Below are positions 13,192 to 63,300 of a DNA stretch of 64,000 bases, piece after piece. The first letter of the stretch is position 1, and every line of letters starts with the position of its first letter. Origin of the DNA: Minisyncoccota bacterium (lineage in GTDB: Bacteria; Patescibacteriota; Minisyncoccia; Minisyncoccales; RBG-13-42-11); the NCBI GenBank assembly GCA_028712445.1, contig JAQTPY010000001.1, positions 120,290 through 184,289 on the forward strand. Reading direction: 5' to 3'. The position numbers and the translations under genes are program-made. The notes beneath the pieces were generated by a model. That model was not told the origin of the DNA. It did not search any database and worked only from the letters and a program-made list of their open reading frames with translations.

Positions 13192-13193
13192 AA

Positions 13194-13211: not shown

Positions 13212-13218
13212 GCGCCTA

Positions 13219-14899: not shown

Positions 14900-14911
14900 A
14901 GATTGTTTTAA

Positions 14912-15451: not shown

Positions 15452-15462
15452 TATAAATAAAA

Positions 15463-23597: not shown

Positions 23598-23647
23598 AGA
23601 TTTTGCTTTTAGCAAAAACTGCCGATGGATTTTATTAAGGCTCTAAG

Positions 23648-42016: not shown

Positions 42017-43111
42017 ATGTTTAACTTTTTGCAGATTTTCCTTCCTCAAAGATTTTTGGGAATAGACGTCGGGACATCTTTTCTTAAAATTGCAGAAGTT
42101 TCAAGATTCGGAAACCGGAGGAAGCTAGAAAACTACGGCTTTCTTTCAGCTCAGGTGTTATATGAGAAGCCTTTCAGGACTTTTGACAAAAATACTCTTC
42201 TTCTTTCAAGCGATGATGTAAGCCGAGCCATAAGAGCAATAATGGAGGAAGCTAAAATCAAAACCAATCAGGTTGTTTTTTCGATTCCTGATTTTTCAAC
42301 TTTCTTCACTAATTTTGAACTGCCCCAAATGACCAAGGAGGAATTGCCCGAAGCTGTGCGTTATGAGGCCAAGCAGCACATTCCCTTTCCATTAAGCGAG
42401 ATGACGTTGGATTGGAAACTGGTTCACGATAAGGCCGTGTTGCAGAAAGGAGAAAATTTAAAAATCCTTCTGGCCGCCGTCCCCAACGAAGTGATCAATC
42501 AATATAATTCAATAGCCGAAAAAGCCAATTTGAAGCTTTATGCTCTGGAAGCGGAAGTTTTCAGCTTAATAAGGTCTCTGGTCAGCGAGGATGAAAAATT
42601 ACCATTGGCCATAATCGATATTGGAGCTCAAAGCACCACTTGCAGCATAATTGTTAAGAGAAGTCTTTATGGTTCTCACAGTTTTAATATGTCAGGAAGC
42701 AACCTTATTGCCGCTGTTTCCAAGGGTTTAAGCATTGACTATAACAAGGCGCAGGAATTGGTGATAAAATTCGGAATAAGTTCCGGGGAAATTCAAAATG
42801 AAAATAATCCCAGAGAAATTCTTCTTCCTTTAATAGATGTTATTTTAAGCGAGACAGATTCTGTTTTAAATAATTTCCGTAAAGAGAAAAATCTGCCAGC
42901 AGAAGGAATTTCAAAAGTCATAATTGCCGGAGGAATGGCATTGATACCCGGCTTAAAAGAATATTTCGCTGAGCATTTGAAAGCAGAGACAGTAATTGCC
43001 AATCCTTTTACCCACCTTTTTTACCCCCCGATTTTAGAAAATAATCTTCAGGAAAAAGGCCCCTCTTTTTCCATAGCGGTGGGAGCAGCCCTTCGCGGCT
43101 TGGAATATTAG
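42017..43111 (+). CDS. pilM: Type IV pilus assembly protein PilM, set 2
   Basis: 364 aa. LGIDVGTSFLKIAEV start. Same length and layout as the ORF at 13805. Followed by PilN/PilO-like genes. Confidence 0.8.
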   Translation: MFNFLQIFLPQRFLGIDVGTSFLKIAEVSRFGNRRKLENYGFLSAQVLYEKPFRTFDKNTLLLSSDDVSRAIRAIMEEAKIKTNQVVFSIPDFSTFFTNFELPQMTKEELPEAVRYEAKQHIPFPLSEMTLDWKLVHDKAVLQKGENLKILLAAVPNEVINQYNSIAEKANLKLYALEAEVFSLIRSLVSEDEKLPLAIIDIGAQSTTCSIIVKRSLYGSHSFNMSGSNLIAAVSKGLSIDYNKAQELVIKFGISSGEIQNENNPREILLPLIDVILSETDSVLNNFRKEKNLPAEGISKVIIAGGMALIPGLKEYFAEHLKAETVIANPFTHLFYPPILENNLQEKGPSFSIAVGAALRGLEY

Positions 43112-43128
43112 GTATATAATATTTAAAT

Positions 43129-43689
43129 ATGGCAGTTGATATCATTCCAACAGAAACAAGCAGGATGCCGAAATGGATAAACTACATGTTTTATTCTTTT
43201 CTCGGGCTTTTGGCAATTTCGTTATTTTGTTTTTTTATCCTGAACAATATTTTCAACAATTCCCGGCAGGAATTAAAAGAACTCGAAGATGCCTTAAACA
43301 ATCAAAGTTGGGAGGTCAGCCCTGGACTGGAAAGCAGCATTCTGGCCAAAAAAGAAAAAATAGATAATTTTAAGACGTTAATCAGTAATCGGAAAACAGT
43401 TTCAGAGATTTTTTCAATTCTTCAGGAGATATCCCATCCTAAAGTTTGGTTTTCTTCCTTTGAACTAAAATCAGAAGAAAATTCCATTGGTCTTGTGGGG
43501 CAAGCCAAGGATTTTGAAAGCCTTGGCCAGCAGATTTTTATTCTTAAATCTGAAAATCTCATTGAAAGTTTTGATTTGCAATCAATTTCAATATCTAAAG
43601 AGGGAAGAATCAACTTCAATTTATCTTTAAGTTTAGACCCTCAAGTTTATAATGTAACTCAGGAATCCTCGGAGGGAAATTATGAATAA
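43129..43689 (+). CDS. PilN-like bitopic protein, set 2
   Basis: 186 aa. One TM helix (YMFYSFLGLLAISLFCFFIL), a coiled coil, and its position after pilM. Confidence 0.6.
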   Translation: MAVDIIPTETSRMPKWINYMFYSFLGLLAISLFCFFILNNIFNNSRQELKELEDALNNQSWEVSPGLESSILAKKEKIDNFKTLISNRKTVSEIFSILQEISHPKVWFSSFELKSEENSIGLVGQAKDFESLGQQIFILKSENLIESFDLQSISISKEGRINFNLSLSLDPQVYNVTQESSEGNYE

Positions 43690-44233
43690 ACAGAATATTT
43701 TCAAGATAACCAATTTCATACCCATTATTGCTTTAGGTTCTTTAATGATCACCCTTTTTCTTTGGGCTGGAGCAATGATTCCTAAAATCAACGAACTGGC
43801 AAAAATTCAAAAAGATATCAAAGAAAAAGGATCTTTGATTACCCGGGAAAAAGAGCATTTTACCAATTTAAAAGAAATAGACCAGAAGCTGGCTGAAAAG
43901 GGAGAAGAAATGGCAAAGATAGGCCTTGCTCTACCCGATTCCCCCGATATTCCATCCCTTTTTGATTTCATTCAAAAAACAGCTTCCTATTCGGGAATGG
44001 TTTTGGAGGGTCTTGGGGACTACACCGTATCTAATTCGTTGCAAGGGGAAAAAATAAGGGAGACTGTTTTCAGTATTCAGGTTTCGGGTTCCTACGAAGA
44101 TTTCAAGAATTTCCTTTCTTCTCTTGAAAATTCATCCAGACTAATTAACGTAGACAGCATTTCTTTCAACGCAAAAGAAGAAGAGGAGAATAACTTCAGT
44201 TTCAATTTAAGCTTGGAAACCTTCAGCAATTAG
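43682..44233 (+). CDS. PilO-like bitopic protein, set 2
   Basis: 183 aa. One TM helix, a coiled coil and a C-terminal alpha/beta region. Overlaps the upstream gene by 8 nt. Confidence 0.6.
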   Translation: MNKQNIFKITNFIPIIALGSLMITLFLWAGAMIPKINELAKIQKDIKEKGSLITREKEHFTNLKEIDQKLAEKGEEMAKIGLALPDSPDIPSLFDFIQKTASYSGMVLEGLGDYTVSNSLQGEKIRETVFSIQVSGSYEDFKNFLSSLENSSRLINVDSISFNAKEEEENNFSFNLSLETFSN

Positions 44234-44243
44234 TTTTCAAAAC

Positions 44244-44576
44244 ATGGAGCACAATTTTGTTCAGCAGCAAAAAAATCAGCGAAATTTAATCATAGTTTTT
44301 ATTTCTGTCATCATTGTCACTGGTTTTATTTTCTGGTTCGGTTTTTTAAGGAAAGATTCGGGTTCGTCCTCCCAGGAAGGACCAGCAACTATCACAGAAC
44401 CAGAAACCATGGGGCAATCTGTTTTTTCAGAAAATGAGATATATCTTGATTTTGCAACTCTCAATGATCCCATTTTTCAAACCTTAATTTCCTTTTCCCC
44501 TATTTTGCCTCCAAGCACTTCAACGGGACTTGAAATAGGAAGGGAAAATCCGTTTATTCCATTTAAAAGCAAATAA
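44244..44576 (+). CDS. Small bitopic protein in the PilP-like position, ending GRENPFIPF
   Basis: 110 aa. One TM helix (LIIVFISVIIVTGFIFWFGF), a Ser/Thr/Pro-rich linker and a C-terminal GRENPF motif. Confidence 0.5.
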   Translation: MEHNFVQQQKNQRNLIIVFISVIIVTGFIFWFGFLRKDSGSSSQEGPATITEPETMGQSVFSENEIYLDFATLNDPIFQTLISFSPILPPSTSTGLEIGRENPFIPFKSK

Positions 44577-44586
44577 TCATTCAAAA

Positions 44587-46314
44587 ATGTCGCTGATAAA
44601 GCAATTAGCAGAAAAGGGATTAATAGATCAGGAAAAAGCCAAGGTTCTGGAAGAGGAGGCCAAGAAAGGCAAGGAAGAGGAAGTAATCTTGAATTCAGGA
44701 GCGGTTCCTGAAGAGGTTTTATTTAAAATCAAGAGCGAGAATCTTAGTATTCCCTTAAAAGAGGTAGACGTTGAGAAAGTCACTTTAAAGGCCCTAGAAC
44801 TGATTCCTGAAGAAACAGCCAAGTTTTATCAAATGATTCCTTTGGAAAAAACAGAGAAGACTTTGGAAGTGGGAATGGTTTATCCTGAAGACCTTAAAGC
44901 TCAGGAAGTGTTGAAATTCTGGGCAAGACAGAAAAATTTCAACTACACAGTTTTTTTAATCACTCCCGATACTCTAAAAAAATTATTGAGCCAGTATCGA
45001 ACCTTAAAAGAGGAGGTAGGCCAAGCTTTAGAGGAGCTTGAAGGAGAGTTAAAAGAGGAAAAAATAAAAGGAAGGACAGAGGAAGACTACGAAAAAATTG
45101 CCGAGGACGCCCCCATTACCAAAATTGTCGCTGTTATTTTAAGGCATGCCGTTGAAGGTTCAGCCTCAGATATTCATATTGAACCCACCCGCACCAAACT
45201 GAGAATTAGATTCAGATTTTTAGGAGAGCTGCATTCCTCAATATTTCTTCCCATAAAAATCCATTCTGCGGTAGTGGCCAGAATAAAAATTCTTTCCAAT
45301 CTCAAGATTGATGAAACCAGGATCCCCCAGGACGGCAGATTTTCAACCAATGTTGCAGGCAAGATAATTGATTACAGAGTCTCTACTTTTCCAACTTCTT
45401 TAGGGGAAAAGGTGGCAATCAGAGTTTTGGATCCGGAAGCAAGCATAAAGACTTTTGAGGATTTGGGACTGAGGGGAAGAAACTTGGAAATAGTTAAAGA
45501 AAAGATAAAAAAGCCATACGGTTTGATTCTGGTGACTGGTCCCACCGGTTCGGGAAAAACAACAACCCTTTATGCTGTTCTTAAGTTATTAAACAAAGAT
45601 GAATCCAATATCGTCACCCTTGAAGACCCCGTAGAGTATCTTATTGACGGTATTAATCAGTCTCAGGTGAGGCCGGAAATAGAATACACTTTTGCATCGG
45701 GATTAAGGCATATTTTAAGGCAGGATCCTAACGTAATCATGGTTGGAGAAATCCGCGATGAGGAAACAGCCACCCTGGCCATTCATGCCGCTTTAACAGG
45801 CCATATAGTATTATCCACTCTTCATACAAACAATGCCTTGGGTGTTGTTCCCCGTCTGATTGATATGGGAATTAAACCCTACCTTCTTCCTCCGACTCTT
45901 CAGGTGGCTATCGCTCAGAGGCTTGTCAGAAAACTTTGCAAGGAGTGCCGGAAAAAAGTGAAACCGACAGCAGAGGTGAAGGAGTTGATTTTAAAGAAAA
46001 TAGCAAACATGCCGGATTCTTATAAATCTGAAGCTAAACTGGGCGGCAAAACCCAGAAGGAAATATATGTTTATGAGCCAGTGGGTTGTTCTAAATGCGC
46101 TCAAACAGGTTTTTCAGGCAGAATAGCTCTTTTTGAAGTTTTTTCCTCCAGCCCGGCTATAATTCAGGAAATCTCCAAAGATCTTTCAGAGGCAAATCTT
46201 TTAAAGAAAGCCAGGGAAGAAGGAATGATGACCATAGACCAAGACGGGATTTTAAAGGCCTTGGAGGGTCTGACAACCATAGAAGAAGTATTAAGAGTAA
46301 CCGAAGAAAGATAA
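44587..46314 (+). CDS. pilB: Type IV pilus assembly ATPase PilB, set 2
   Basis: 575 aa. T2SSE_N-like N-terminus. Walker A GPTGSGKTTT, VGEIRD, TGHIVLSTLHT. Tetracysteine motif (CKEC..C..C) present. Confidence 0.9.
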   Translation: MSLIKQLAEKGLIDQEKAKVLEEEAKKGKEEEVILNSGAVPEEVLFKIKSENLSIPLKEVDVEKVTLKALELIPEETAKFYQMIPLEKTEKTLEVGMVYPEDLKAQEVLKFWARQKNFNYTVFLITPDTLKKLLSQYRTLKEEVGQALEELEGELKEEKIKGRTEEDYEKIAEDAPITKIVAVILRHAVEGSASDIHIEPTRTKLRIRFRFLGELHSSIFLPIKIHSAVVARIKILSNLKIDETRIPQDGRFSTNVAGKIIDYRVSTFPTSLGEKVAIRVLDPEASIKTFEDLGLRGRNLEIVKEKIKKPYGLILVTGPTGSGKTTTLYAVLKLLNKDESNIVTLEDPVEYLIDGINQSQVRPEIEYTFASGLRHILRQDPNVIMVGEIRDEETATLAIHAALTGHIVLSTLHTNNALGVVPRLIDMGIKPYLLPPTLQVAIAQRLVRKLCKECRKKVKPTAEVKELILKKIANMPDSYKSEAKLGGKTQKEIYVYEPVGCSKCAQTGFSGRIALFEVFSSSPAIIQEISKDLSEANLLKKAREEGMMTIDQDGILKALEGLTTIEEVLRVTEER

Positions 46315-46325
46315 TTAATAAATTT

Positions 46326-46706
46326 ATGGCAAACACAAAAAAGAAAACAATCTTATTGGTAGAAGACGACCCCTTTTTAATCGATATTTATTCAACTAAG
46401 TTTTTAGAAAGCGGTTTCTCGGTAGAAATAATCAAATCTGGGGATTTGATTCTGCCCAGACTCGAAGAAATAACCCCTGATTTAATAGTTTTGGACATAG
46501 TCCTCCCTCAAATGGACGGCTGGGAAATTTTAAGAAGAATAAAATCAGAAAAACGTTTCAAAGATTTAAAGGTGATAATTCTCTCCAATCTCGGCCAGAA
46601 AGAAGAGGTGGAAAAAGGCATGAAGCTGGGGGCAACCAAATATTTAATCAAAGCCCACTTCACTCCGAGCCAGATTGCCGAAGAGGTGAAAAAGATTTTG
46701 GATTAA
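46326..46706 (+). CDS. Stand-alone receiver-domain response regulator (PilH/CheY-like)
   Basis: 126 aa. VEDD acidic pocket, LIVLDIVLP phospho-acceptor, ILSN, KAHF. No output domain. Confidence 0.85.
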   Translation: MANTKKKTILLVEDDPFLIDIYSTKFLESGFSVEIIKSGDLILPRLEEITPDLIVLDIVLPQMDGWEILRRIKSEKRFKDLKVIILSNLGQKEEVEKGMKLGATKYLIKAHFTPSQIAEEVKKILD

Positions 46707-46724
46707 ATTTTACATATAACTCTT

Positions 46725-47789
46725 ATGAATAATTACCAAGAAAGAATAAAAGAATTGCTTGAATTGACATTCAAGGAACAGGCTTCAGACCTTCATCTCT
46801 CTGTGGGCCACAGCCCGATTTTGAGAGTGGCAGGAGAGCTGATCCCCTTGGTTAAAAAAAAGGTTCTTGAAGCAGACGATACCAGAGGAATGGCAGAGGC
46901 CTTAATGTCTCCCGAACAATTTAAAAAGCTTTTTGAAGAAAAAGAACTGGATTTTTCCCACAACGTGGCGGGAGAGGGGCGCTTCAGGGTGAATGTTTTT
47001 TTCCAGCAGGGAAATATTTCAATCGCTTTCAGGTTAATCTCAGACAAGATAAAAACCATTGATGAGTTGAATTTGCCTCCTATCATCAAAGAATTTACTG
47101 AAGCTTCCCAAGGTTTTGTCATTATCACCGGCCCTTCTGGCTCAGGCAAATCAACCACCCTGGCTGCTTTAATTGATCAGATAAACCACACAAGAAAAGA
47201 TCACATAATCACCATTGAAGATCCGGTAGAATTCATTTTCGAGGATGACAGAAGTATTATTGACCAAAGAGAGGTTCAGCAGGATACCCTTTCTTTTGCG
47301 CGAGCTCTCAGGGCCACTTTCAGGCAAGATCCCAATGTTATTATGGTTGGGGAAATGAGAGATCCTGAAACAATATCCACAGCCATTACCGCTGCTGAAA
47401 CCGGTCATTTGGTATTTGCCACTCTTCATACTAATTCAGCCAGCCAAACGATTCACCGCATAGTGGATTCTTTCCCTTCCGACCAGCAGGAGCAGATAAG
47501 AGCCCAGCTCTCGTCTTCCCTGCTCGGAGTTGTTTCCCAGAGGCTGATTCCAAGGATTAAAGGAGGCCTTATTCCTGCCTGCGAGGTGATGATAGCTACT
47601 CCCGCCATTTCAAATCTTATCAGGGAGAATAAAGTGCACGAGCTTCCTTTAGTAATTGAAACGTCAAACGAATTAGGAATGGTTTCCTTAAACAGATCTT
47701 TGGCTAATTTAGTCAGAAGAAAAGAAATTGCCCTGGAGAGCGCTCTGAATTTTTCTCTTAATCCCAAAGAATTGCAGATGTTAATGTAG
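46725..47789 (+). CDS. pilT: Type IV pilus retraction ATPase PilT
   Basis: 354 aa. ASDLHL start. Walker A GPSGSGKSTT, VGEMRD, TGHLVFATLHT. AIRNLIRE-like motif (AISNLIRENK). Confidence 0.9.
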   Translation: MNNYQERIKELLELTFKEQASDLHLSVGHSPILRVAGELIPLVKKKVLEADDTRGMAEALMSPEQFKKLFEEKELDFSHNVAGEGRFRVNVFFQQGNISIAFRLISDKIKTIDELNLPPIIKEFTEASQGFVIITGPSGSGKSTTLAALIDQINHTRKDHIITIEDPVEFIFEDDRSIIDQREVQQDTLSFARALRATFRQDPNVIMVGEMRDPETISTAITAAETGHLVFATLHTNSASQTIHRIVDSFPSDQQEQIRAQLSSSLLGVVSQRLIPRIKGGLIPACEVMIATPAISNLIRENKVHELPLVIETSNELGMVSLNRSLANLVRRKEIALESALNFSLNPKELQMLM

Positions 47790-47834
47790 ATGAAGTTTAA
47801 TTATGATTCCCGCAAGCGGGTCCCTATTAATTAA

Positions 47835-49037
47835 ATGAAATTTAATTATCAAGCGAGAACGAAAGATGGAGACACTCAGGCAGGCCAAGTGGAAGCTTCT
47901 TCAAAGGAGGCCGCTGTTAATTTACTGCAGCAGCATAGCCTTTACGTCACTTTTCTCCAGGAAGCAAAACCTCCCTTATATGCTTTGAAATTAAATCTTT
48001 TCGGGAATATTTCCAGAAAGGAAATAGTTCTTTTTTCACGTCAGCTAAGCATAATGTTTAAATCCAAAGTTTCTTTGATTGAAGCTTTGAGATCCATAGG
48101 CAGTCAAACAAAAAATGCTGATTTAAAAGAAAAGATATTTCATATTTCCGAAGAAGTGGAAGGGGGAACCTCTTTTTCTAAGGCAATTTCAAATTACCCC
48201 AAACTCTTCTCCCCCTTTTACGTGGCAATGGTAAAATCCGGGGAGGTTTCAGGAAAGCTGTCTCAGGCCCTGAATTATTTGGCCGATCATTTAGAGAGAG
48301 AGTATTATCTTATTTCTAAAGCCAAGGGGGCTTTGGTTTACCCTTCCCTTATACTCGTCGTGGTAGTAGGAGTCCTTCTGATGATGACTTATTTCGTTCT
48401 TCCCAACCTTAGCCAGGTCTTATTAAGCAGCGGAGTTGATCTTCCCCTGATTACCAAAATTGTTTTGAAAATGGGAGATTTTATAAGAAAGGCGGGCTGG
48501 GTGCTGATTCTTCTTTCTGGAGTAGCAGCTTTTCTTTTTTCCAAATTTTATCGGAGCCCTAAAGGGAAAGAGGTGTGTGACAGATGGATTCTTAATTTTC
48601 CTCTTGCGGGAAATCTGATAAAAATGATTAATGTCAGCCGTTTTGCTGAAAATCTTGCCACCTTGATTTCCGGAGGCCTCCCCATTACGCAGGCATTGGG
48701 AATTACCGGAGACATAATCGATAACATTTCTTACAAGAAAATAATCTTTAAAGCGCGGGACGACGTTAAAAAAGGAGAGCCCATATCGTCTGTGCTGGAG
48801 GGGGCGCCAGTTCTCTTTCCCCCTATTTTTACTCAGATGGTCAGAGTCGGGGAAAGAACGGGAACTCTCGATGTAACCTTATTGGAAATAGTTGAATTTT
48901 TTCAAAAAGATATAGAAAGATCAATAGACGGCCTGATCGGTGTTCTGGAACCGGTTTTGATAATCTTCTTGGGAGGATTGGTGGGAGGAATGCTGCTCTC
49001 GGTTCTTATGCCTCTTTATCAGACAATATCAATGTAA
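47835..49037 (+). CDS. pilC: Type IV pilus platform protein PilC, set 2
   Basis: 400 aa. Duplicated GspF domains and three TM segments. Confidence 0.85.
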   Translation: MKFNYQARTKDGDTQAGQVEASSKEAAVNLLQQHSLYVTFLQEAKPPLYALKLNLFGNISRKEIVLFSRQLSIMFKSKVSLIEALRSIGSQTKNADLKEKIFHISEEVEGGTSFSKAISNYPKLFSPFYVAMVKSGEVSGKLSQALNYLADHLEREYYLISKAKGALVYPSLILVVVVGVLLMMTYFVLPNLSQVLLSSGVDLPLITKIVLKMGDFIRKAGWVLILLSGVAAFLFSKFYRSPKGKEVCDRWILNFPLAGNLIKMINVSRFAENLATLISGGLPITQALGITGDIIDNISYKKIIFKARDDVKKGEPISSVLEGAPVLFPPIFTQMVRVGERTGTLDVTLLEIVEFFQKDIERSIDGLIGVLEPVLIIFLGGLVGGMLLSVLMPLYQTISM

Positions 49038-49124
49038 AAGTTTTTAATTGAGTTTTCCACATACCCTCCCTTGCCTTCTTGTGCTAATATTACTTAATTA
49101 AAGGTCATTATTAATAAAAAAAAT

Positions 49125-49610
49125 ATGATGAATATTGATAAAGAAAAAAAAGGCTTCACCTTGATTGAATTATTGGTGGTGATTGCCATTATCGGCTTGC
49201 TATCTTCGATTGTTTTAGTGGCAGTGGGGCCGGCCAGAGCCAAAGCCAGAGACGCCAAAAGACAATCAGATATCAGACAAATTTCTTCAGCCATGGAAAT
49301 GGCAATGTCTGACAGTGTCGTGAGCCAATACCCTGCAGTTACAGCGGCGAGCGGCAAGCTGTCCAGCGTTGCTTCTCCATTCGCAACTTATATGCCGTCT
49401 CTTCCTCAGGATCCTGGAGGAGGTTCGGGAGCTTGCACTACTGATGACAGCTCAGAGACAGCAGCCGGAGGCTACTGCGCTTATTCTAGCAGTGCTGGAT
49501 CAGAGTTTTGCATTTATGCCAAACTTTCGACCGGAGACTGGATTGTGGCCAGCGAGAAGGGAGTGTCTACGATGACTACTTACCCCGCAACAATGTCAGC
49601 TTGCCCCTAG
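49125..49610 (+). CDS. Type IV (major-type) pilin 1
   Basis: 161 aa. [10 protein letters not shown]|[34 protein letters not shown] helix. C-terminal Cys pair. Confidence 0.85.
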
Positions 49611-49694
49611 AGTTTGATAGTAAATATATTTTTAGCAAAGGTCGATTAGATAACGATTCCGTTCCGCAAATCAGCGAACGGCGAAAGAATAAAT

Positions 49695-50156
49695 ATGCAA
49701 TTATTTGAAAAGAAAAATCGTGGCTTCACCTTGATTGAATTATTGGTGGTGATTGCCATTATCGGAATTTTAGCATCAATCGTTTTAGTTTCTTTGGGTG
49801 GAGCAAGAGCTAAAGCCAGAGATGCTCAAAGGCAGTCGGATATGAGACAGATTGTGACAGCTCAAGAAATGTATTACGGAGACAGCTCAGTTTATTTTCA
49901 ATCAGGAGCCACTGCCGGCACAAGCACTTTTTCTGGGATTACAGGTTATTTGGATGCCATTGATGATCCTCAGCCGACAACCAAAGATTACATTTGGGTA
50001 AACAACGATTACGACATCACAGACTGCACTCAGGGAGATTACTTTTGTGCTTACGCCGCCCTGGAGGGAGGAAATTATTTTGCCGCTTCCGAGAAGGGAA
50101 CTAAAACAGTATCTGCGCTTCCTGAATACGGCTCTTCAGATTGCGTTTGCTGGTAG
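49695..50156 (+). CDS. Type IV (major-type) pilin 2
   Basis: 153 aa. MQLFEKKNRG|[21 protein letters not shown]. Same helix motif as pilin 1, divergent C-terminal globular part with Cys residues. Confidence 0.85.
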   Translation: MQLFEKKNRGFTLIELLVVIAIIGILASIVLVSLGGARAKARDAQRQSDMRQIVTAQEMYYGDSSVYFQSGATAGTSTFSGITGYLDAIDDPQPTTKDYIWVNNDYDITDCTQGDYFCAYAALEGGNYFAASEKGTKTVSALPEYGSSDCVCW

Positions 50157-50308
50157 AGCACACATTATCTAAAAGCAAAAAGGCGTTTCCGAACTGGAGC
50201 GCTTTTTTGTTTGGGCAACTTTGAAAGAATGTTGAATTTAGAATATAGTATATAGAATGAGAATAGAGAATTGAGAGAATCCTTATTCAAGATTCCAAAT
50301 TCTATTTT

Positions 50309-51085
50309 ATGCAGATATATTTTAGCATTGCCACATTCCTCTTGGGTCTTATAGTCGGTTCCTTTTTAAACTGCGTGATTTATAGAATGGAGGAGGGAAA
50401 GAGTTTTTTGAAAGGCCGTTCTTTTTGTCCTTATTGCAAACACGAGCTTTCTTGGCGTGATTTAATTCCTATTTTCAGTTTTCTTTTATTGAGAAGAAAA
50501 TGCAGATATTGCAAAAAGCCCATATCTTGGCAATATCCCCTGGTGGAACTGGGAACAGGAATCCTATTTGTTTTAGGATTGCTTTTTGTTTTTAATTCAG
50601 GGATTTGGGATTTTATTTGTTATTTGCTTGTTTCTTCTTTTTTTGTTTTAATCTTTGTCTTTGATTTAAAACATTATATTATTCCCGATAGATTGGTCTG
50701 GCCGGCAATTTTAATTGCTTTTTTATATCAGTGGAATTTATATCAATGGAATTTTTTGGAAATGAAAAATCTGGCATTGGGAGTGCTGCCGGCTTTCTTT
50801 ATTCTGGCCATTATAATTGTTTCTCGCGGCAAATGGATGGGTTTGGGTGATTTTAGTCTGACAATATTAATGGGCCTTTTCCTCGGCTTTCCTAAAATCC
50901 TTGTAGCTTTGTTTTTTGCATTCTTTCTGGGTGCTATAATAGGAATAAGCTTGATGATTTTCAAAGGAAAAACTTTAAAATCAGAGATTCCTTTCGGCCC
51001 CTTTTTAATAACGGCAACCTTTATTTCTTTTTTTTGGGGCCAGCAGATAATTAACGGGTATCTTCGTTTTCTGTTTAATCCATGA
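50309..51085 (+). CDS. pilD: Prepilin peptidase (A24 family) PilD
   Basis: 258 aa. N-terminal CxxC..CxxC zinc motif (CPYC..CRYC). Polytopic. Conserved Asp-containing motifs (FDLKHYIIPD, GLGDF). Confidence 0.85.
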   Translation: MQIYFSIATFLLGLIVGSFLNCVIYRMEEGKSFLKGRSFCPYCKHELSWRDLIPIFSFLLLRRKCRYCKKPISWQYPLVELGTGILFVLGLLFVFNSGIWDFICYLLVSSFFVLIFVFDLKHYIIPDRLVWPAILIAFLYQWNLYQWNFLEMKNLALGVLPAFFILAIIIVSRGKWMGLGDFSLTILMGLFLGFPKILVALFFAFFLGAIIGISLMIFKGKTLKSEIPFGPFLITATFISFFWGQQIINGYLRFLFNP

Positions 51086-51582
51086 ACAAAGCTTTCACTT
51101 TGATAGAATTAATGGTCGTGACGGCCCTGATTGCTCTCGTGAGCATTTTGATCATGCCCAATTTCAGAAGCGGAGAAAATCAGTTGGCAGTCAAAAGAGA
51201 AACCTATAAACTGTCTCAGAATATAAGGAGAGTACAAGAAATGGCCATTTCCGCCAAAGAATTTGAGGGAGCAGTGCCCGGTGGCTACGGAGTCTATTTT
51301 AAAAAAACGGAGCCCGCTCATTTTATTATTTTTGCCGACATTGATAACGACAAGACATATTCGTCTCTAGACAATGTTGTAGAAGATGTTTTATTGGAGG
51401 AAATTGAAATCAGCAGTCTTTCTTCGGGAACGAAACTAACAATTGTTTTTACTTCGCCGGATCCGACAGTGACCATTACTCCTTCATCTGAATCAGCTGC
51501 GATTAATCTGAAGAGGGTGGGTTCTGAGCAGGATGTTTCTTCAGTTACCATTAACAAAGTCGGTTTAATAACCATAGATTAG
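51082..51582 (+). CDS. Minor pilin (GspH/FimT-like)
   Basis: 166 aa. MNKA|FTLIELMVVTALIAL. ATGA start/stop overlap with pilD. Confidence 0.7.
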   Translation: MNKAFTLIELMVVTALIALVSILIMPNFRSGENQLAVKRETYKLSQNIRRVQEMAISAKEFEGAVPGGYGVYFKKTEPAHFIIFADIDNDKTYSSLDNVVEDVLLEEIEISSLSSGTKLTIVFTSPDPTVTITPSSESAAINLKRVGSEQDVSSVTINKVGLITID

Positions 51583-51585
51583 CGC

Positions 51586-52212
51586 ATGAAGAACGGGTTT
51601 ACTTTAATTGAGGTAGTGATAGCTATTTTTTTCCTGACAGTTGGCGTAGGCGGCTGTTTTGCCTTAATTCAGCAGGTATCAGCTTCCAACTCTCTGAATA
51701 AGTCAAAGTTTGAAGCTTTTTATTTGGCTCAGGAAGGAGTTGAAATAGTCAGAAACATCAGGGATAACAATTGGCTGGAAAGCAGAGATGATCCCGGCAT
51801 TCTTTGGACCGAGGGAATTGTTTCAGCTTCGGGCTGTCTTTCTTTGAGGATTTCACCCTGCGATTCTTACGGAGACGTAAATTTTGACGGCGTAGTGAGC
51901 GACAAAGACAGCGATCTTGTTTCAGATTATATATCAGGTTTCGGGTCATTGAGTGCAGAAGAATTAAAAAGAGCAGATGTTAATGGTGACGGAGACGTAA
52001 ACAATCTTGACTTAACAGCTTTTGAAAATTATATAGGGTGCGCGCCTGCCTATAATTTGCCAATCTGTTCTCTTGCGGGAAAATTCCAAAGAGAGACGAT
52101 CGTTATCCAGATTGACAGCAACAACATAGATGTTTTAAGCAGAATATATTGGCAGGAGAGAGGGGCAACCCATGAGGTTGAAGTCGTAAACCAATTATCA
52201 AACTGGAAATGA
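51586..52212 (+). CDS. Minor pilin (PilV-like) carrying an internal dockerin-like double EF-hand module
   Basis: 208 aa. MKNG|FTLIEVVIAIFFL. Residues ~95-150 read GDVNFDGVVSDKDSDLVSDYI ... ADVNGDGDVNNLDLTAFENYI, i.e. two dockerin type I-like repeats. Confidence 0.65.
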   Translation: MKNGFTLIEVVIAIFFLTVGVGGCFALIQQVSASNSLNKSKFEAFYLAQEGVEIVRNIRDNNWLESRDDPGILWTEGIVSASGCLSLRISPCDSYGDVNFDGVVSDKDSDLVSDYISGFGSLSAEELKRADVNGDGDVNNLDLTAFENYIGCAPAYNLPICSLAGKFQRETIVIQIDSNNIDVLSRIYWQERGATHEVEVVNQLSNWK

Positions 52213-52772
52213 AAAAAGGAGGTTTTACTTTAATTGAAATATGTGTTGCTGTAGCTATTTTCTCGTTGGCCATTACAGCTTTGTTTGGTTTTTTAAACCA
52301 AACCACCAAGACCCAGGAAAGATCATTGATAATGGGGCGCATGATAGACAATACATCCTATGTTTTAGAATACATGAGCCGTGCCTTAAGAATGGCAAAA
52401 AAGGATGATTTGGGAGGAGTTAATTGCTTAGTCGGGAATAAGGTAAATTATGAAATTACCCGGGCAGGCCAGGGGATAAAGTTTAGAAACTATAAAGATG
52501 AATGCCAGGAGTTTTTTTTGGAATCAGACAAACTGAAAGAATGGAAAAACACAGGAGGAATTCAGGCAGAGAATTTTTTCACGCCATCGAATATTGAAAT
52601 AGGTGATTTTAAAATAGGACCCTCCGACACCTGGGACCAAAACGACGATCAGCAGCCTCGCGTCACTCTTTATTTAAAGGCCGTATATTCAGAGGGGTAT
52701 TGGTCAAACTCCCCTCTTTTATTAGACGTCCAGACAACTGTTTCTCAGAGGAACTTAGATGTTAGAAGATAA
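52209..52772 (+). CDS. Minor pilin (PilW-like)
   Basis: 187 aa. MKKGG|FTLIEICVAVAIFSL. Overlaps the upstream stop. Confidence 0.7.
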   Translation: MKKGGFTLIEICVAVAIFSLAITALFGFLNQTTKTQERSLIMGRMIDNTSYVLEYMSRALRMAKKDDLGGVNCLVGNKVNYEITRAGQGIKFRNYKDECQEFFLESDKLKEWKNTGGIQAENFFTPSNIEIGDFKIGPSDTWDQNDDQQPRVTLYLKAVYSEGYWSNSPLLLDVQTTVSQRNLDVRR

Positions 52773-53118
52773 AAAAGAAAAACAAAAAGGCACGTCAATA
52801 TTGTTTGCTGTTTTAGTGTTGAGTCTTGTTTTATCTGTCAGTTTTGGCATAGCAAACATTTTAATGTTTCAAATAAAAATATTAAAGGAGGTTGGGCATT
52901 CGGTGGCGGCTTTCTACGCGGCTGACGCAGGGATTGAAAAAGTTTTAATGGAAAGGCATTCTCCTCAGAATCTGGAAGAAAATCTTTCTAATGGCGCAAG
53001 CTTTAGAGTTATTGTGACTGCCGGAGGATCGGGAAATTGTCCTGAAAGTATTAATTTTTGCATAAAATCAATAGGATCTTTCGGGGGAACAAGGAGAGCC
53101 ATAGAAATAAAATATTAA
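52759..53118 (+). CDS. PilX-like small pilus protein
   Basis: 119 aa. N-terminal KGTSILFAVLVLSLVLSVSF hydrophobic helix without the FTLIE motif. Last gene of pilus set 2. Confidence 0.55.
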   Translation: MLEDKKEKQKGTSILFAVLVLSLVLSVSFGIANILMFQIKILKEVGHSVAAFYAADAGIEKVLMERHSPQNLEENLSNGASFRVIVTAGGSGNCPESINFCIKSIGSFGGTRRAIEIKY

Positions 53119-53269: not shown

Positions 53270-53986
53270 ATGAGAAAAAAGAAACAATTTTCAGAAGGTC
53301 ATATATATCACATATACAATCGCGGCGTAGCAAAGAATTTAATTTGCGCAAAAGAAGACGATCTTTGGCGTTTTCTTCAGGGGCTTTGCCTGTTCAACGA
53401 TAAAAACAATGCAGCAAATGTATTATGGAAATTAGCCAGAAGCCGAGGCGAGTTAAATCTAAACATATTAAAAGAATACATTGCAGAGAACAAAAAAGAA
53501 CCCTTGGTGCGCATTCTTGCATACTGTATTATGGATAATCACTTTCATCTGTTGGTTGAGGAAATCCAGGAAGGCGGAATCGTTAGGTTTATGCAGAGGC
53601 TCGGCACGGGGTATGCCCGTTATTTTAACAATAAACACAAAAGAGTCGGCCCTCTTTTTCAAGGCAGATTTAAGACGGTTTTAGTGAAGGAAGACATGCA
53701 TCTTTTATATCTTTTGGCCTACATTAACGTTATTAATCCCGGCCAATTTATTCAGCCCAAACTGAAAGAAGAGGGAGCAAAGGACATAAAGAAGATTTTA
53801 GACGGTGTTGAGAAATATCCCTGGTCAAGTCATCTGGACTATTTGGGAAAAAGGGAGTCAATCATTATCGAGAAGGGATTATTCAGCAAAATGCTGCCCA
53901 CCCCCAAGTATTATCAGGATTTAGTCAGGAACGTTTTGGAGGAGAGGAAATATCAGCAAATTTCCCATCTTGCTATCGAGCAATAA
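53270..53986 (+). CDS. REP-associated tyrosine transposase (IS200/IS605 Y1 HUH family)
   Basis: 238 aa. HIYNRG start, HUH motif HFHLLV, and GYARYFNNKHKRVGPLFQGRFK typical of RAYT/IS200-like transposases. Confidence 0.75.
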   Translation: MRKKKQFSEGHIYHIYNRGVAKNLICAKEDDLWRFLQGLCLFNDKNNAANVLWKLARSRGELNLNILKEYIAENKKEPLVRILAYCIMDNHFHLLVEEIQEGGIVRFMQRLGTGYARYFNNKHKRVGPLFQGRFKTVLVKEDMHLLYLLAYINVINPGQFIQPKLKEEGAKDIKKILDGVEKYPWSSHLDYLGKRESIIIEKGLFSKMLPTPKYYQDLVRNVLEERKYQQISHLAIEQ

Positions 53987-57275: not shown

Positions 57276-57321
57276 TTAAGGGAAAATAACATAATATTTC
57301 ATACATATATCGGGTATCGCT

Positions 57322-60300
57322 ATGGAGGGTAGTTTTAAGGAGTATATATCGCTACAAGAAGCAACAAAATTCTGTAATTATTCTCAGGAGTATTTATCAT
57401 TGAGAGCCCGCAATGGAAAATTAAAAGCCGTAAAATTTGGTCGGAATTGGGTGACGAAAAAAGACTGGCTGGAAGAATATTTATCTAAAGTTGAAGAATA
57501 TAATGGTTCTGTCGGGGCGAATGGCAATTCAAACAATAATCACGTTTTGCAAATTGAAAAAGAAGTCAAAGATTTTTTTCAGAAGAAAGTATCAGCTACT
57601 CCAGAAAATTTACCGACCGAAAATAATTTTGCAAAAATTACATTTTCTTTCCGGAAATATTTTGCTGAAAAATTTCAGACGATATCCTCAGTTGCAATTC
57701 CAAGCATATTAAAACCAAGGATTCTGCAAGGCAGGGTTCTTGCAATATATCTGATGGTTGGATTGCTTTTTGTTGGCAACAGTGTTTTAGGGAAAGAATC
57801 TTTTAAAAATGTATTTAATGATTTTGAACCCTACGTTAATGCTGTCGGTTTAGCCGGGGATCAAATCATTCAGCAATTGGCAGATGATTTTAAAGAAGGA
57901 TATGAGTCGGCTTCCTTGTTAACCTTCGAAATCAATGAAAATTTAAACAAAGGAATTGATGTTGTGAATTTTGAAATTAGAAATCAAAATTCCCAAATGA
58001 GAAATTTAATTGGAGATTCCCTTGCCTTTAATATTTCTCTTCCTAAATTATCTTTCGGTGAAAAGTGGAATATTTTCGGATTAATGAAAGAAGGAGCAGA
58101 TATTATACTGGCAGATGTTTCAAATGGTTTTCAAAAAAGAATAAACAAGGCGAATGATTTTGCTTTCAGTGTGGGGTCGGCGGGAGACATAATTACAGAA
58201 GGATTTAAAAATTTCGTGGTGGGAAATTTTGTAGACAAGAATTACCAAACGGCTGACGTTAATGATGCAGCAAGTTTCAGCCAGGGAAGCACGATAGGAA
58301 ATCTTGCTAAAACCGTAAAAAGAATTCCGACTAATTTTTCTGAAGGATATAGTTTTGTAAACAATGCTTTAGAGGAAAAGATACAGGAGGGTTATAAAAA
58401 AGCAACAGCTCCAATCAATAATCTTTTTAAGGCGATTGTTTCTCCTTGGAGGAAAACCCCCTCAGAAGAATTCGCCTTTGAAGAAAAAAAAGAAGAAATA
58501 AAAGAGGAACCGCAGGAAGATAAAAAGGATCAGCCAAAACAGGTGACACAGGTGACTAATGTTCAGCCCATAAAGGAAATTGTCAGAGAAACAACAGTGA
58601 TTAAGCCGGATGAGGAAAGCATAAAAAAGATATGGTCTGATATTGGTGAAATACAGGCAGATCTTGCCAACCGCCTTTACGCTCCTGGCGGGGTGATCAC
58701 TCAGCAGATATATGTCACCCAGCCCGTGGCTTCCCCCAAGATATATCAGGAGAATGGAGACATAGTTTTGCAGACCGCAGGTTCAGGCAACGTCATTCTT
58801 TCTGCAGCAACCGGAATGCAGATCTCAGGCCAGCAGGTGGTAATTGATTCCACATCTGTGCTGAATCCTTTAATTTACATTGCCGATAAAGCCAAGATTG
58901 CGGGCGATACTGAAATTGAAGGAACAGTGACGGCCCGCGGATTGGTTCTCAGCGCTGCCGGCGGAGCAGGCAAGGTGATAAATGTGATCAGGAGCGGATC
59001 TTCAATGTTTTCTTTAACCGATGATGGCCAGGTTTCTTTGGTTGGAAATTTTTCGCTCTCCACCACTTCAAGCGAAACTGCGCTTTCTATAAATCAATCG
59101 GGCACAGGAAATATAGTTGATATTAAAGACGGCGGCACTTCCGTTCTTTCCATCGCTGATGGAGGTTATGCCACTTTCGCAGTGGCGGCCTCAACCACAC
59201 CTTCATTTTTAATTAAAGAACCTGGCATATCCTGGACAGGAGCTTCTTCAACTTATTTAGCGCTTACGGCCAGCTCTTCTTTTGACGGAAGATTCATTGA
59301 TATCCAGACCGGAGGTTCAAGTGTCTTCTATATCGACGGTTCGGGAAATACAGTTATAGGAGGAACTCTTTCAGTTTCAACCACAACAAGCAGATTTACG
59401 GGAGATATCGTGGTTGAAGGGAATATTACGCCTTCCACTACCACCGTTTATAGTTTGGGATCTTCCGCGTACAACTGGAATAATGTATATACAGCCAATA
59501 TCTTGTCTGCAGCCAATCTCACTTTTTCAGCTTCAAACACAGAAGCAATGAGAATAGATGGCGACACTAATTTTGTCGGTATTGGCACTACCACTCCTTC
59601 TTCCAATCTCGAGATTGCAGATAATGATGCTTCCACCGCTCTCACTCTTACTGTAGCCACAGACTCCGCTCTTTATGACCCAAGCATAATTTTCAGAAAC
59701 GGGGGAACGGTTCCTACAACCAGATTCATTATGGGAGTGGATTCCTCTGCTTTAAATAACTTTAAAATTTCAACATCTTCAATAGGGACAGATGATTTAT
59801 TCGTAATAGACAATATTTCAGGGAATGTGGCCATAGGTTCTTCCACTGCCTCCACTCTTTTCTCTGTGGCCACCTCATCTGACATCTTCAATGTCACCTC
59901 AGGAGGAAGAGTTGGTATTGGCACCAGCACGCCCGATTCCACTTTAGGGGTTTGGGGAACTTCCACTTTCATGGGCGGCAACGTGGGTATAGGAGTCATA
60001 GATCCCACTCATTCTTTGTCTGTTAACGGTAGATTAAGAGTGGATACCACGGGCCATACTTACGTAGGATCAACCACAGCGACGGTTGGTGAAAAAACAA
60101 TGCTTACTGTCCAGGAAGTGGTGAAAATTGCTGACGATGAGGAATATACAGGAATAACGTCTCAGGTATTGGCTCAGAAAACCACAGCTCCTTATTCGGG
60201 AATCGTAATGGGTATTCTGGGGAGGGCTATTTTGTGGGGCGGAAATACCCAGGATTGGACCAGTAGCTTAGGGTTGATTGGTGTGGATGGTGGCATAAAG

Positions 60301-63300
60301 ACGTGGGCGGGGGCTACCGGTACAGTCAGCAATGCGATTTCCCTTCTTGCTCAGGGAGATTTTTCCGCGTCCAACGCAACGGTCACTAATTGGTACGGTC
60401 TTTACATTCAAGGTGCTAGCGGATCAGGTCGCAAGCCGGTCAATGAATACGGAATATATTTACAAGACAGGACCGGCGGCACATCCAACAACTATGCTGT
60501 TTATTCTGTTGGAGGAACCAACTACTTTGGAGGAAAAATGGGTATTGCCACAAGCTCTCCCACAGAAATGCTTTCAATTAAAGCTTCTTCCACCAACGCA
60601 ATCTTAGGTCTCTATTCCTCCTCATCTGCCCCAGTATTATATGTAGCTGAAAACGGCAACATGGTAGTGGGTTCTTCCACTGCCTCCACTCTTTTCTCTG
60701 TGGCCACCTCATCTGACATCTTCAATGTCACAAGCGGAGGCAATGTCGGAATCGGCACCACTTCTCCTGAATACACTCTGTCTGTAGTGGGCAATGTCTA
60801 TGGTTCAGGCAATGCAATTTTTAACCAGAACTTAACTGTTTCTGGAACATCAAGCTTTATAGGAACTAGCACATTCTCAGGCAATGTGGGGATAGGGACA
60901 ACAACTCCTCAAGGAACACTTGATGTTAATGGGAATATAGTGATTAACAAGGTTGGCACGGGTTGGACGAGTGAAATAGGATGGATAAGGGACAATGTTG
61001 AATTGTCCTGGATACAGCTTGACCAAGACAATATAATGTATGTTTATGCCACCAGCGGGCTTAGAATAGTGGCGCCAAGCGGAGAGATAGCCAGGTTTAC
61101 TGAAGACAGGAAGCTCGGTGTCGGCATAACCGGTCCTTCAGAAGTTCTTACTGTTAAAGGATTTTCTACCAATGCCATCTTCGGAGCTTATTCTTCTTCT
61201 TCAGTGCCTGCTATATATGTGGCAGCAAATGGCAACATGGTTGTGGGTTCTTCCACAGCAGCCACATTATTCTCAGTCGCTACTTCATCTGACATATTTA
61301 ACGTGACTTCCGGGGGCAAGGTGGGTATTGGCACCACTTCACCTTCTGAAGCATTAACCATTAATGGAAACATTTACGGCTCGGGCAATGCTGTGTTTAA
61401 AGGAACTCTTGAAGTTAGCACAACTACTATTTTAGCTGACGTTATTGTTAAGGGAAATCTTGTGCCGTACGATGCCGACGATAGCAATTATGTCGGAACC
61501 GGTTCGCCTGAGATCAGGTGGGATTATGGTTATTTTGGCGAAATGAATATTCTGCATTTAGCCGCTGCTTCAACTTCAATCAGCGGAACTGAGTCTCAGA
61601 CATTCACCGTGAACAGTGATGCTGGGGGCGATGAGAATTCTTACTTAGAGTTCTACAGAGGAAATGCTCTTAATTCTGCTGCAATCTCCTGGATTGCCGA
61701 CAGCGACAGATTTTCTTTTAACTTCCCTGTGCGTCTTTCAGCTTCAGGCACAATCTCATCTGCAAACGACATGTATTTTAATGTTGGGGATGCTGACAGA
61801 ATGTTCATTTCAAGCACAACAGGCAATGTGGCTATAGGCACTACTTCTTCAGCCACTCTCTTCTCTGTTGCCACCTCTTCAGACATATTCAATGTCACCT
61901 CAGGAGGCAACGTAGGAATCGGCACCACTTCACCTGCTTACACCCTTTCTGTTGTAGGAAATATCTATGGATCAGGAAACGCAATCTTTGGAGGAACCCT
62001 TACTTCTGCCGGCACTACTTCTTTTGGCACCACCACCATTGCAGGAAACTTGATTCCCTCAACAGATGCTACATATCTCCTGGGTTCTTCCACTGCCAGA
62101 TGGGCAAATCTCTACACCGCCACAGCCACCATTGGAGGAACAATCACCGTTAACTCAACAGACATTGCAGGATCAGGAGCTTTGAACCTAACTGCCGCAA
62201 CCAACTTGACTGCTTCCTCAACCAATGACTTGATATTTGTGACAAATGGGTCTGAAAGAATGAGGATAGATGACGAAACGGGATATATAGGAATGGGAAC
62301 AACGACTCCAAGCTCACCTCTGCACATCATATCTTCGGCTGACAGTATATTAAGGTTGCAGCAGTCAGATACTTCCACCTGGAATTACATTGAGTGGTAC
62401 GATCCCACTTCGAGGCAGTTCTGGACAGGGATAGACGGAACAGGAAACTTTGCATTGAATCCGCAGAGTGGAACAGGCTTGATCATGGCTACCAGCAGCG
62501 AGATCGGAATAGGAACAGGCGCACCTGCAGAAAAACTTGATATCGCAGGAAATGTCAGATTCGGTTCAGCTCCTCCCACTTTCACTGCTTTAAGCGAAGC
62601 AATCTCGGCCACTTCTACTGTGATCCCCGTAAATTCGACCTCCAGCTATCCTTCGAGAGGAACTTTGCTTATTGATTCTGAAGCAATCACTTATACCAGC
62701 ATAGGATCATCTTCATTTATCGGAGCTTCGAGAGGGAAGCTAGGAACCGTATCAGCAGCCCATTCTTCCGGAACAACAGTCAAAAACTACATTTTAACAG
62801 GATTGGGGTATAGCCAAAGCTATCCTAAATTCGTAGTTTTAGGAGATGGGAGCTTGGCTATTTCGACTTCCACGCCTTTAGAAAGTCTTACTGTTTGGGG
62901 AGGGCTTTATGTCGGGACTTCCACGGTTCCTAATTTATATGTGGCTTCAACTTCAGGCAACGTAGGAATCGGCACCACTTCACCTGCTTACACCCTTTCT
63001 GTTGTAGGAAATATCTATGGATCAGGAAACGCAATCTTTGGAGGAACCCTTACTTCTGCCGGCACTACTTCTTTTGGCACCACCACCATTGCAGGAAACT
63101 TGATTCCTTCAACAGATGCTACATATATACTGGGATCTTCCACAAACAGATGGGCAAATCTCTACACCGCCACAGCCACCATTGGAGGAACTATCACCGT
63201 TAACTCAACTGATATTGCAGGATCAGGAGCTTTGAACCTAACTGCCGCAACCAACTTGACTGCTTCCTCAACCAATGACTTGATATTTGTGACAAATGGG

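Follow-up and report, generated by a model that had tools for sequence, protein, structure and literature searches.

A dockerin was found inserted in the alpha/beta loop of a minor pilin encoded by a type IV pilus cluster of a Minisyncoccota bacterium (Patescibacteria). The gene lies in the stretch of 64,000 nucleotides analysed here, referred to as the window (contig JAQTPY010000001.1, positions 120,290 to 184,289), and encodes a protein of 208 amino acids. A sequence-only reading of the window had proposed a dockerin-like double EF-hand module at 51868-52035 within this protein; these coordinates correspond to residues 95-150, in which both loops are present, and cysteines bracket this segment. 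The features of the gene, all on the + strand and numbered as in the window, are the following:

51586..52212, +, dockerin-bearing minor pilin gene (208 residues)
51586..51597, +, class III leader peptide MKNG (from the sequence and TIGR02532)
51604..51783, +, alpha1 helix, residues 7-66, the pilin polymerisation helix (AlphaFold2 model)
51835..52068, +, Cys-clasped dockerin cassette, residues 84-161 (C84, C92 ... C152, C161)
51868..52035, +, Dockerin_1 match, residues 95-150 (Pfam PF00404)
51874..51909, +, Ca-binding loop 1, DVNFDGVVSDKD, residues 97-108, followed by helix 1 (residues 106-117)
51976..52011, +, Ca-binding loop 2, DVNGDGDVNNLD, residues 131-142, followed by helix 3 (residues 140-150)
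52084..52200, +, C-terminal antiparallel beta-sheet of three strands, residues 167-205 (AlphaFold2 model)

The inserted module is a genuine dockerin, as confirmed by a hidden Markov model (HMM), by sequence matches to solved dockerins and by the predicted fold. The HMM search suggested by the sequence-only reading gave a clear answer. Residues 95-150 match positions 1-56 of the 57 of PF00404 with an E value of 2.3e-12 and 47.3 bits, far above the gathering cutoff of 22.9, and precomputed PF00404 annotations are present on 11 of the listed homologues. Within this segment the two repeats, GDVNFDGVVSDKDSDLVSDYI and ADVNGDGDVNNLDLTAFENYI, lie 13 residues apart, and each 12-residue Ca-type loop leads into a helix-forming stretch with Y-I at its end; a six-frame regular-expression scan disclosed no other D-x-[ND]-x-D-G loop in the 64-kb window. 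A phmmer search against the PDB sequences retrieved the dockerins 8X39, 4FL4, 1CLC/4CJ0, 3UL4, 6KG9, 1DAQ, 2MTE, 1OHZ and 2CCL. The AlphaFold2 model of the pilin (a predicted and not an experimental structure, built from 26 homologues) has a mean pLDDT (predicted local distance difference test) of 88.6 for the whole protein and of 90-96 over the module, which shows the three-helix dockerin topology, i.e., a loop, helix 106-117, a linker helix (124-130), a second loop and helix 140-150. When the model was compared with the PDB using Foldseek, dockerins were the only high-probability matches, with target-normalised template modelling (TM) scores of 0.8-0.95 and root-mean-square deviations of 0.6-1.6 A; the best figures were those of 1OHZ_B (0.95 and 0.6 A), and the TM scores of 2CCL_B, 4UYQ_B and 4FL4_J were 0.92, 0.81 and 0.82, respectively.

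The protein that carries the module is a prepilin-type minor pilin, as the sequence-only reading had stated, with a class III signal peptide, a TIGR02532 score above the cutoff (17.1 bits versus 16.3) and a complete type IV pilus operon around its gene; the score of the Pfam N_methyl model, 18.8 bits, is just under the cutoff of 21.2. Its N-terminus, MKNG|FTLIEVVIAIFFLTVGVGG, fits a short leader ending in Gly, followed by F+1, E+5 and a hydrophobic stretch of about 20 residues, and FTLIEVVIAIFFL comes directly after the MKNG leader of the 51586..52212 open reading frame (ORF); the prepilin peptidase is predicted to cut after Gly4, leaving a mature protein with F+1 and E+5. In the AlphaFold2 model, helix 7-66 and the strands 167-177, 180-191 and 194-205 form the lollipop fold of pilins; alpha1 is the best-conserved region of the family in the alignment of the homologues. 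As far as the subclass is concerned, one homologue bears the NCBI name 'PilV family'.

The comparison with the homologues shows that the dockerin is an insertion in a pilin that elsewhere does without it. The module occurs in about 15 clusters (at 90% identity) among the 420 homologues, and most of the others are pilins of 155-200 residues aligned over the full alpha1 and the beta-sheet, with a short unrelated loop or a 4-Cys loop at the module site; full-length orthologues lacking the module measure about 165 residues. In the AlphaFold2 model predicted for an orthologue without the dockerin (pLDDT 90.8), that site is taken up by two short strands, and the three long C-terminal strands are the same. 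The alpha/beta loop carrying the cassette would be surface-exposed. The gene of the dockerin-less protein P0033 (166 residues) has the identical place in its operon, with ligA and ftsW coming after it as they do in the window, and the genes of the dockerin-bearing P0015 and P0005 are found in that place, too. In P0129, the ancestral loop has been retained and the module is placed after it, a second architecture that might represent either an independent acquisition or an intermediate form. The full pilin plus dockerin arrangement was represented by about seven clusters at 50% identity in an hmmsearch of 1.84 billion cluster representatives. In the species-representative genomes of GTDB, 172 matched stretches encode relatives of the pilin; the best 80 of these loci, nearly all labelled Patescibacteria, were kept. 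The module is present in only one of the best 80 of 172 (a Nealsonbacteria metagenome-assembled genome), and no other dockerin was found within 10 kb at any of them.

The conservation of the module was counted over 15 module-bearing homologues, 41-54% identical overall. In repeat 1, the residues D1, N3, D5 and G6, as well as S/T9, are present in 15 of 15, and D12 in 12 of 15, with one further homologue having Glu; in repeat 2, D1 is kept in 13, N/D3 and D/N/S5 in 14 each, and both a polar position 9 and D/E12 in all 15. The sequence-only reading had expected the Ca-ligand positions to be conserved, and they are, positions 1, 3, 5 and 6 of repeat 1 being invariant and those of repeat 2 being kept in 13-15 of the 15 homologues; they would bind Ca2+ as a pair of F-hand sites. 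Two cysteines, Cys84 and Cys92, are located N-terminal to the module and two, Cys152 and Cys161, C-terminal to it, C92 and C161 corresponding to the two clasp cysteines that do not vary in the family of the module. On sequence grounds, a C92-C161 disulfide would join the N- and C-termini of the module; with its ends tied in this way, the module would form a closed cassette, well fitted for being placed in a loop. A second, pilin-specific disulfide would pair C84 with C152. In P0010, P0012, P0014 and P0015 (L001 8541-9131), a Cys-rich stretch, e.g., CYGKAAAGLCVRYDLNGSG, stands in place of the first helix and the linker; Ca loop 1 is intact in these proteins, which thus harbor a remodelled half-dockerin.

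These data bear on the idea that the module might be a neutral or decaying passenger, i.e., a mobile dockerin cassette settled in a tolerant loop and devoid of function. Its rare and patchy distribution would agree with this idea, and so would the lack of a clean clade of dockerin-bearing proteins in a crude tree and the degenerate repeat 2 or helix 1 of a few homologues. Nevertheless, the ligands of repeat 1, G6 and C92/C161 are invariant at an overall identity of only 41-54%, two insertion architectures exist, and the guanine plus cytosine content of the module is that of the gene (40.6% vs 41.5%), so that the module is not a recent arrival; altogether, a functionless passenger appears highly improbable. 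Two simple scenarios for the origin of the module were also considered: a recent horizontal transfer was rejected on the basis of the same lack of a compositional anomaly, and a single insertion found no support in the crude neighbour-joining tree (116 body columns), in which the dockerin-bearing proteins are not monophyletic and which is too weak to decide.

The same clasped cassette is reused outside pilins. Many of the top matches of the profile search are large proteins aligned only to positions ~84-162, several times each, whose repeats follow the pattern [SP]PC-x2-[YF]GD-x-N-x-DG ... RADV-x-x-DG ... TFP-x-C, shared by the pilin cassette and its flanks; in 22 aligned clasped modules, neither of the flanking cysteines varies. 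Two of the proteins with clasped modules have taxon names, Woesearchaeota MBI2663984.1 and Micrarchaeia MFA5246998.1, and both are labelled by NCBI as belonging to DPANN archaea. The Woesearchaeota repeats (P0122) share 44-46% identity with the pilin module, the SPC...FPxC flanks included, and resemble it about as much as do the modules of distant orthologues of the pilin. In P0122, P0139, P0142, P0145, P0150, P0195, P0214, P0215 and P0223, the clasped subtype forms tandem arrays or is appended to enzymes, and clasped dockerins accompany a papain-like protease, a metallopeptidase with a peptidoglycan-binding domain, Kazal inhibitors, Kre9/KNH Ig-like domains and RCC1 repeats. A module-only search and a search with the 22-module profile in a word-indexed protein database returned only short fragments, which were informative neither on taxonomy nor on cohesins. 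A different dockerin-bearing prepilin was also noticed, P0154 (L089 10001-11422), a 473-residue orphan with a C-terminal array of several unclasped dockerins, whose gene lies among housekeeping genes, next to that of an anaerobic ribonucleotide reductase and with no cohesin within 10 kb.

The gene of the dockerin pilin belongs to a single co-directional type IV pilus cluster (42017-53118), whose synteny is kept in relatives and whose other members are:

42017..49037, +, PilM (42017), PilN, PilO, a 110-residue ORF, PilB ATPase, a response regulator and PilT ATPase (Pfam)
47835-49037, +, 400-residue ORF in the PilC slot (T2SSF matches of the syntenic ~400-residue gene in relatives)
49125..50156, +, two candidate major pilins of 161 and 153 residues (49125, 49695)
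50309..51085, +, prepilin peptidase (A24_N_bact and Peptidase_A24, Pfam)
51082..51582, +, minor pilin 1, GspH/FimU-like (TIGR01708 over 4-160 of 169, below cutoff)
52209..52772, +, minor pilin 3, with a GspI/GspJ-like N-terminus and PilW/GspJ-like by position
52759..53118, +, fourth subunit, with a hydrophobic N-terminus and no Glu5 (…KG|TSILFAV…)

The dockerin pilin is the second of the four small subunits that follow the prepilin peptidase, an order shared by the relatives, and its stop codon overlaps the start codon of the next pilin gene in an ATGA at 52209. The fourth subunit matched no family among the Pfam or TIGR models, and by its position it would be PilX/GspK-like. Minor pilins of the H-I-J-K and FimU-PilV-PilW-PilX sets prime the assembly of the filament and stay at its tip (PMC8833165, PMC8179133). 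Since the gene order is H/I/J/K-like, the dockerin pilin is probably a subunit of the tip complex, present in about one copy; we thus infer that the dockerin is shown at the tip of the pilus. A tip adhesin of the PilY1 type (Neisseria_PilC/PilY1 domain) was not seen among the 37 window ORFs scanned. The sequence-only reading had imagined the module displayed on the filament, and a distribution along the shaft does not agree with this gene order. An IS200-like Y1 transposase gene (53270-53986, +) is located between the minor-pilin genes and ligA; it looks like a local insertion, because ligA directly follows the pilin genes in the related loci L001 and L006.

On these grounds, the following mechanism can be tentatively proposed. 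A self-contained dockerin, probably disulfide-clasped and Ca2+-binding, is inserted in the alpha/beta loop of the PilV/GspI-position minor pilin of a Patescibacteria pilus; the four co-encoded minor pilins would form a priming complex that ends up at the tip, where the dockerin might serve as a Ca-dependent protein-protein plug for a partner with a cohesin-like socket. The partner could be either an adhesin or enzyme of the bacterium itself or a surface protein of the cell to which it is attached, and the plug would bind in one orientation, unlike the dual mode of cellulosomal dockerins. That the dockerin is a tip-displayed, Ca-dependent docking plug coupling the retractile pilus to such a socket in a single orientation is the reading that we favour, even though we consider that it falls slightly short of probable. 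The clasped module is appended to protease, metallopeptidase and Kazal proteins, as cellulosomal dockerins are to enzymes; binding modules (Laminin_G_3 and CarboxypepD_reg) are carried by other modular pilins of the window; and the module has been maintained in about 15 clusters at 90% identity and in two arrangements.

The pattern of conservation also lends itself to another explanation, according to which the module plays a structural or regulatory role, making the loop rigid or rendering the stability of the tip complex, or the extension and retraction of the pilus, dependent on Ca2+, with no external partner; by analogy, it might be likened to the EF-hand-like Ca site of PilY1 and to the Ca sites of the pseudopilins of the type II secretion system (T2SS). 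Indeed, the Ca ligands and the clasp cysteines are conserved, unlike the surface of helices 1 and 3, a 4-Cys or simple loop is found at the same place in other orthologues, the 37 window ORFs scanned yielded no cohesin, and a Ca-dependent function of a tip protein is established for PilY1 (PMC8833165, PMC3248442). Yet most orthologues function without the module, which is therefore not needed for assembly, and a complete, self-folding domain of 70 residues would be a costly way of stabilising a loop; an interaction module fits better with its reuse on proteases and in tandem arrays of surface proteins. Such a role is possible, but on the whole we regard it as unlikely.

Several observations weigh against the docking plug proposed above. 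The first group concerns the binding surface. Positions 10, 11, 17 and 18 of each repeat, which we take to be the cohesin contacts of cellulosomal type I dockerins (1OHZ), are hypervariable across the 15 homologues; moreover, helix 1 is replaced by Cys-rich sequence in P0010, P0012, P0014 and P0015, and P0013 lacks D1 of repeat 2. With contacts so variable, and with helix 1 replaced or D1 lost in some homologues, a binding of the cohesin type is not obviously conserved. Within the pilin itself, the contact residues are unlike between the repeats (D-K/S-D vs N-L/E-N); because the repeats differ at these four positions, the symmetry for the dual binding of the cellulosome is absent. The second group concerns the partner. 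The 37 window ORFs scanned, which cover most genes of the pilus cluster and the majority of the window ORFs with a hydrophobic segment predicted at the N-terminus, contain no cohesin (PF00963), even at permissive thresholds, and precomputed annotations disclosed none in the ~10-kb flanks of four dockerin-pilin loci or of two clasped multi-dockerin genes; likewise, none of 10 clasped-dockerin proteins bears a cohesin. Many non-cellulosomal dockerins have no known partner, according to Peer et al. (2009) as cited in two later papers (PMC10066038, PMC9012536). The third group concerns the PilV/GspI identity, for which the evidence consists of the gene order and of a sub-threshold TIGR02523 (PilV) match, limited to the N-terminal 55 residues (E value 1.4e-5, 25.6 bits vs a cutoff of 52.2). 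A PDB profile search with the pilin body matched only the alpha1 of major pilins, and Foldseek with the model of a dockerin-less orthologue, in which the C-terminal strands are also modelled, retrieved no solved pilins; since these searches matched either alpha1 only or nothing, the class assignment rests on gene order.

The other explanations are kept alive by the few homologues whose helix 1 or repeat 2 has degenerated, and by the fact that no cohesin was detected in the ORFs and flanks searched. A further one is that the tip module is itself an adhesin, binding a glycan, an S-layer or a cell-wall polymer of the host in a Ca-dependent manner. Its hypervariable surface residues would suit host-specific recognition, and there are precedents of different kinds: the vWA and lectin modules of the modular pilins PilB and PilC adhere directly (PMC8179133), the dockerin arrays in giant ORFs of Omnitrophota have been suggested to be adhesins (PMC10066038), and an essential envelope protein with a dockerin domain is known in a cultivated Saccharibacterium, for which the targeting of host glycans has been speculated (PMC10633639). 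However, the module is small and shows no obvious ligand pocket. To our knowledge, moreover, dockerins have been experimentally shown to bind only cohesins, and a direct adhesin seems rather doubtful.

Candidates for the partner were sought close to the gene. The 37 window ORFs scanned do not recall a cellulosome: they comprise no cohesin and no glycoside hydrolase, and only one dockerin pair is present in 64 kb. An operon-encoded partner was rejected, as the operons with and without the dockerin have like gene sizes and no extra domain of ~140 residues. A giant open frame (57295-64000, +), of more than 2,235 residues and running past the end of the window, has no Pfam domain; it shows an N-terminal excisionase/helix-turn-helix-like segment, one hydrophobic segment near residues 150-165 and Ser/Thr/Gly-rich repeats with a recurring 'GNVGIGTTSP...L.V.G' unit, whose sequence suggests a fibre or a beta-helix-like surface protein. 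As a cohesin scaffold it was discarded, given the absence of Pfam domains and a repeat composition unlike that of cohesins. The downstream position that it occupies differs in the relatives, being taken by an unannotated protein of 1,237 residues in L001 and by a TPR protein in L006. Elsewhere, cohesin and dockerin proteins have been reported as expressed in a Shapirobacterales metagenome-assembled genome of the candidate phyla radiation (CPR) (10.1101/2021.08.21.457207), and in ANME (anaerobic methanotrophic archaea) consortia dockerin and cohesin have been proposed to act in cell-cell contact, although their presence alone does not reveal their function (PMC9012536).

The dockerin pilin shares with the cellulosomal type I dockerins (Clostridium thermocellum Xyn10B, 1OHZ_B/2CCL_B; Clo1313_0689 double dockerin, 8X39) the duplicated 22-residue F-hand with D/N at positions 1, 3, 5, 9 and 12, and the three-helix fold, which in the predicted model superposes at 0.6-1.6 A. 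Unlike them, the module lies inside another domain rather than at a C-terminus, has a Cys clasp (C92-C161 plus C84/C152) and repeats that are asymmetric at the contact positions, belongs to a Patescibacterium, and stands in a context where no cohesin, scaffoldin or carbohydrate-active enzyme was found in the scanned window ORFs. Non-cellulosomal dockerins of DPANN archaea, Omnitrophota and ANME are likewise without known partners (PMC10066038, PMC9012536); they belong, however, to large proteins anchored in the membrane, either as tandem arrays or appended to enzymes, and are not a single pilus module.

Among pili, the closest parallel in principle is offered by modular pilins, whose grafted functional modules are predicted to be exposed at the tip and are especially common in CPR phyla (PMC8179133). 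The Streptococcus sanguinis PilB-vWA and PilC-lectin pilins also combine a pilin with a binding domain predicted to be tip-exposed (PMC8179133); in these the graft is C-terminal, via a linker, whereas the dockerin lies in the middle of the fold (residues 84-161 of 208), and the modules are lectin or vWA adhesins rather than a docking (adapter) domain. T2SS GspK, CofB-CofJ of enterotoxigenic Escherichia coli and TcpB of Vibrio cholerae are likewise tip minor pilins whose extra domain may recruit a protein (PMC8179133). The style of insertion of GspK, with an alpha-domain in the pilin fold, is the closest to that described here, although the inserted domains are unrelated; in the known cases the extra domain is carried by the subunit in the GspK/PilX position, and here by the small one in the GspI/PilV position. 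The tip adhesins PilY1/PilC exert a Ca-dependent function at the tip together with four minor pilins, as is proposed here (PMC8833165), but PilY1, a large beta-propeller protein that is no pilin, has one loop of 9 residues, and the dockerin pilin has a two-site F-hand pair within the pilin itself.

The sequence-only reading knew of no description of a dockerin as a pilus feature, and this is true in part. A literature search on dockerins with pilins, Patescibacteria or DPANN retrieved no paper discussing a dockerin in a pilin. The machine annotations, on the other hand, had already met with it: the exact protein is named by NCBI 'MAG: dockerin type I domain-containing protein [Candidatus Pacebacteria bacterium]', and the architectures IPR012902-IPR002105-IPR002105 (2 proteins) and IPR012902-IPR002105 (1), i.e., 3 out of 1,219 modular pilins, are contained with no comment in Dataset S1 of Raynaud et al. 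(2021) (PMC8179133). IPR002105 is the entry for the type I dockerin repeat. Thus, both the principle of modular pilins and the annotation of the protein as dockerin-containing are already established; what is new is the loop insertion in a PilV-position minor pilin, the putative disulfide clasp, the two ways in which the module is inserted, the connection with clasped dockerin arrays of proteins assigned by NCBI to DPANN, and the explicit hypothesis of a tip plug.

Other genes of the window are related to pili or to the cell surface. A second, separate type IV pilus-like cluster (6474-15984, +) contains a response regulator, a 584-residue ORF (6855) and a 406-residue ORF (8614), which are PilB- and PilC-like by size and position only, a 459-residue pilin-like protein (9835-11214) carrying a CarboxypepD_reg domain at its C-terminus, a 194-residue pilin, a 481-residue protein with a hydrophobic N-terminus and no family match, and then PilM, PilN and PilO. 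An orphan modular pilin (36854-37705, -) has an RGFTLIELL prepilin N-terminus and a Laminin_G_3/concanavalin-like lectin domain (E value 1e-20). PF13385 (Laminin_G_3) and PF13620 (CarboxypepD_reg) define the two commonest classes of modular pilins in the catalogue, the Laminin_G_3 architecture being the commonest (PMC8179133). The sequences of three small secreted T4SS_pilin (PF18895) proteins (2919-3314, 32032-32472 and 32590-33018, +) suggest that other parts of the genome encode a system of the conjugation type or resembling type IV secretion. A membrane-anchored protein of 304 residues (69-983, +), with an extremely Cys-rich C-terminal half and no family match, adjoins a secreted protein of 442 residues with PKD/Ig-like domains (1586-2914, +), and the two may form a surface-protein cluster. 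Lastly, ARAGORN found 19 tRNA genes in the 64 kb, one of which is a tRNA-Ile with the anticodon UAU (23647-23721, -); such a tRNA is uncommon, bacteria usually reading AUA by means of a lysidine-modified CAU tRNA.

As for the meaning of these findings, few machines have been shown to matter when cultivated Patescibacteria attach to their hosts, and type IV pili are among them; only a minority of the recognition molecules at the tip are known. Two things limit the practical weight of the dockerin pilin, its rarity (a few uncultivated lineages) and a partner that is still missing. Cohesin-dockerin pairs are among the mechanically strongest protein interactions known, a property that would suit a retracting filament. 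It might even be speculated, although we regard this as quite unlikely, that the tip dockerin of some Patescibacteria locks in a Ca-dependent manner and with high mechanical strength into a cohesin-like socket on the host or on an exchangeable adhesin or enzyme, thus making a swappable tip, and that the Cys-clasped cassette is a shared and horizontally exchanged attachment toolkit of ultra-small CPR and DPANN episymbionts. Independently from this, the insertion into the loop represents a second route to modular pilins beside C-terminal grafting, and the cassette defines a Cys-clasped subtype of dockerins that is also present in proteins assigned by NCBI to DPANN archaea. A dockerin at the tip would be a defined, small and self-folding handle, which could be expressed as a bait for the partners bound by the pilus.

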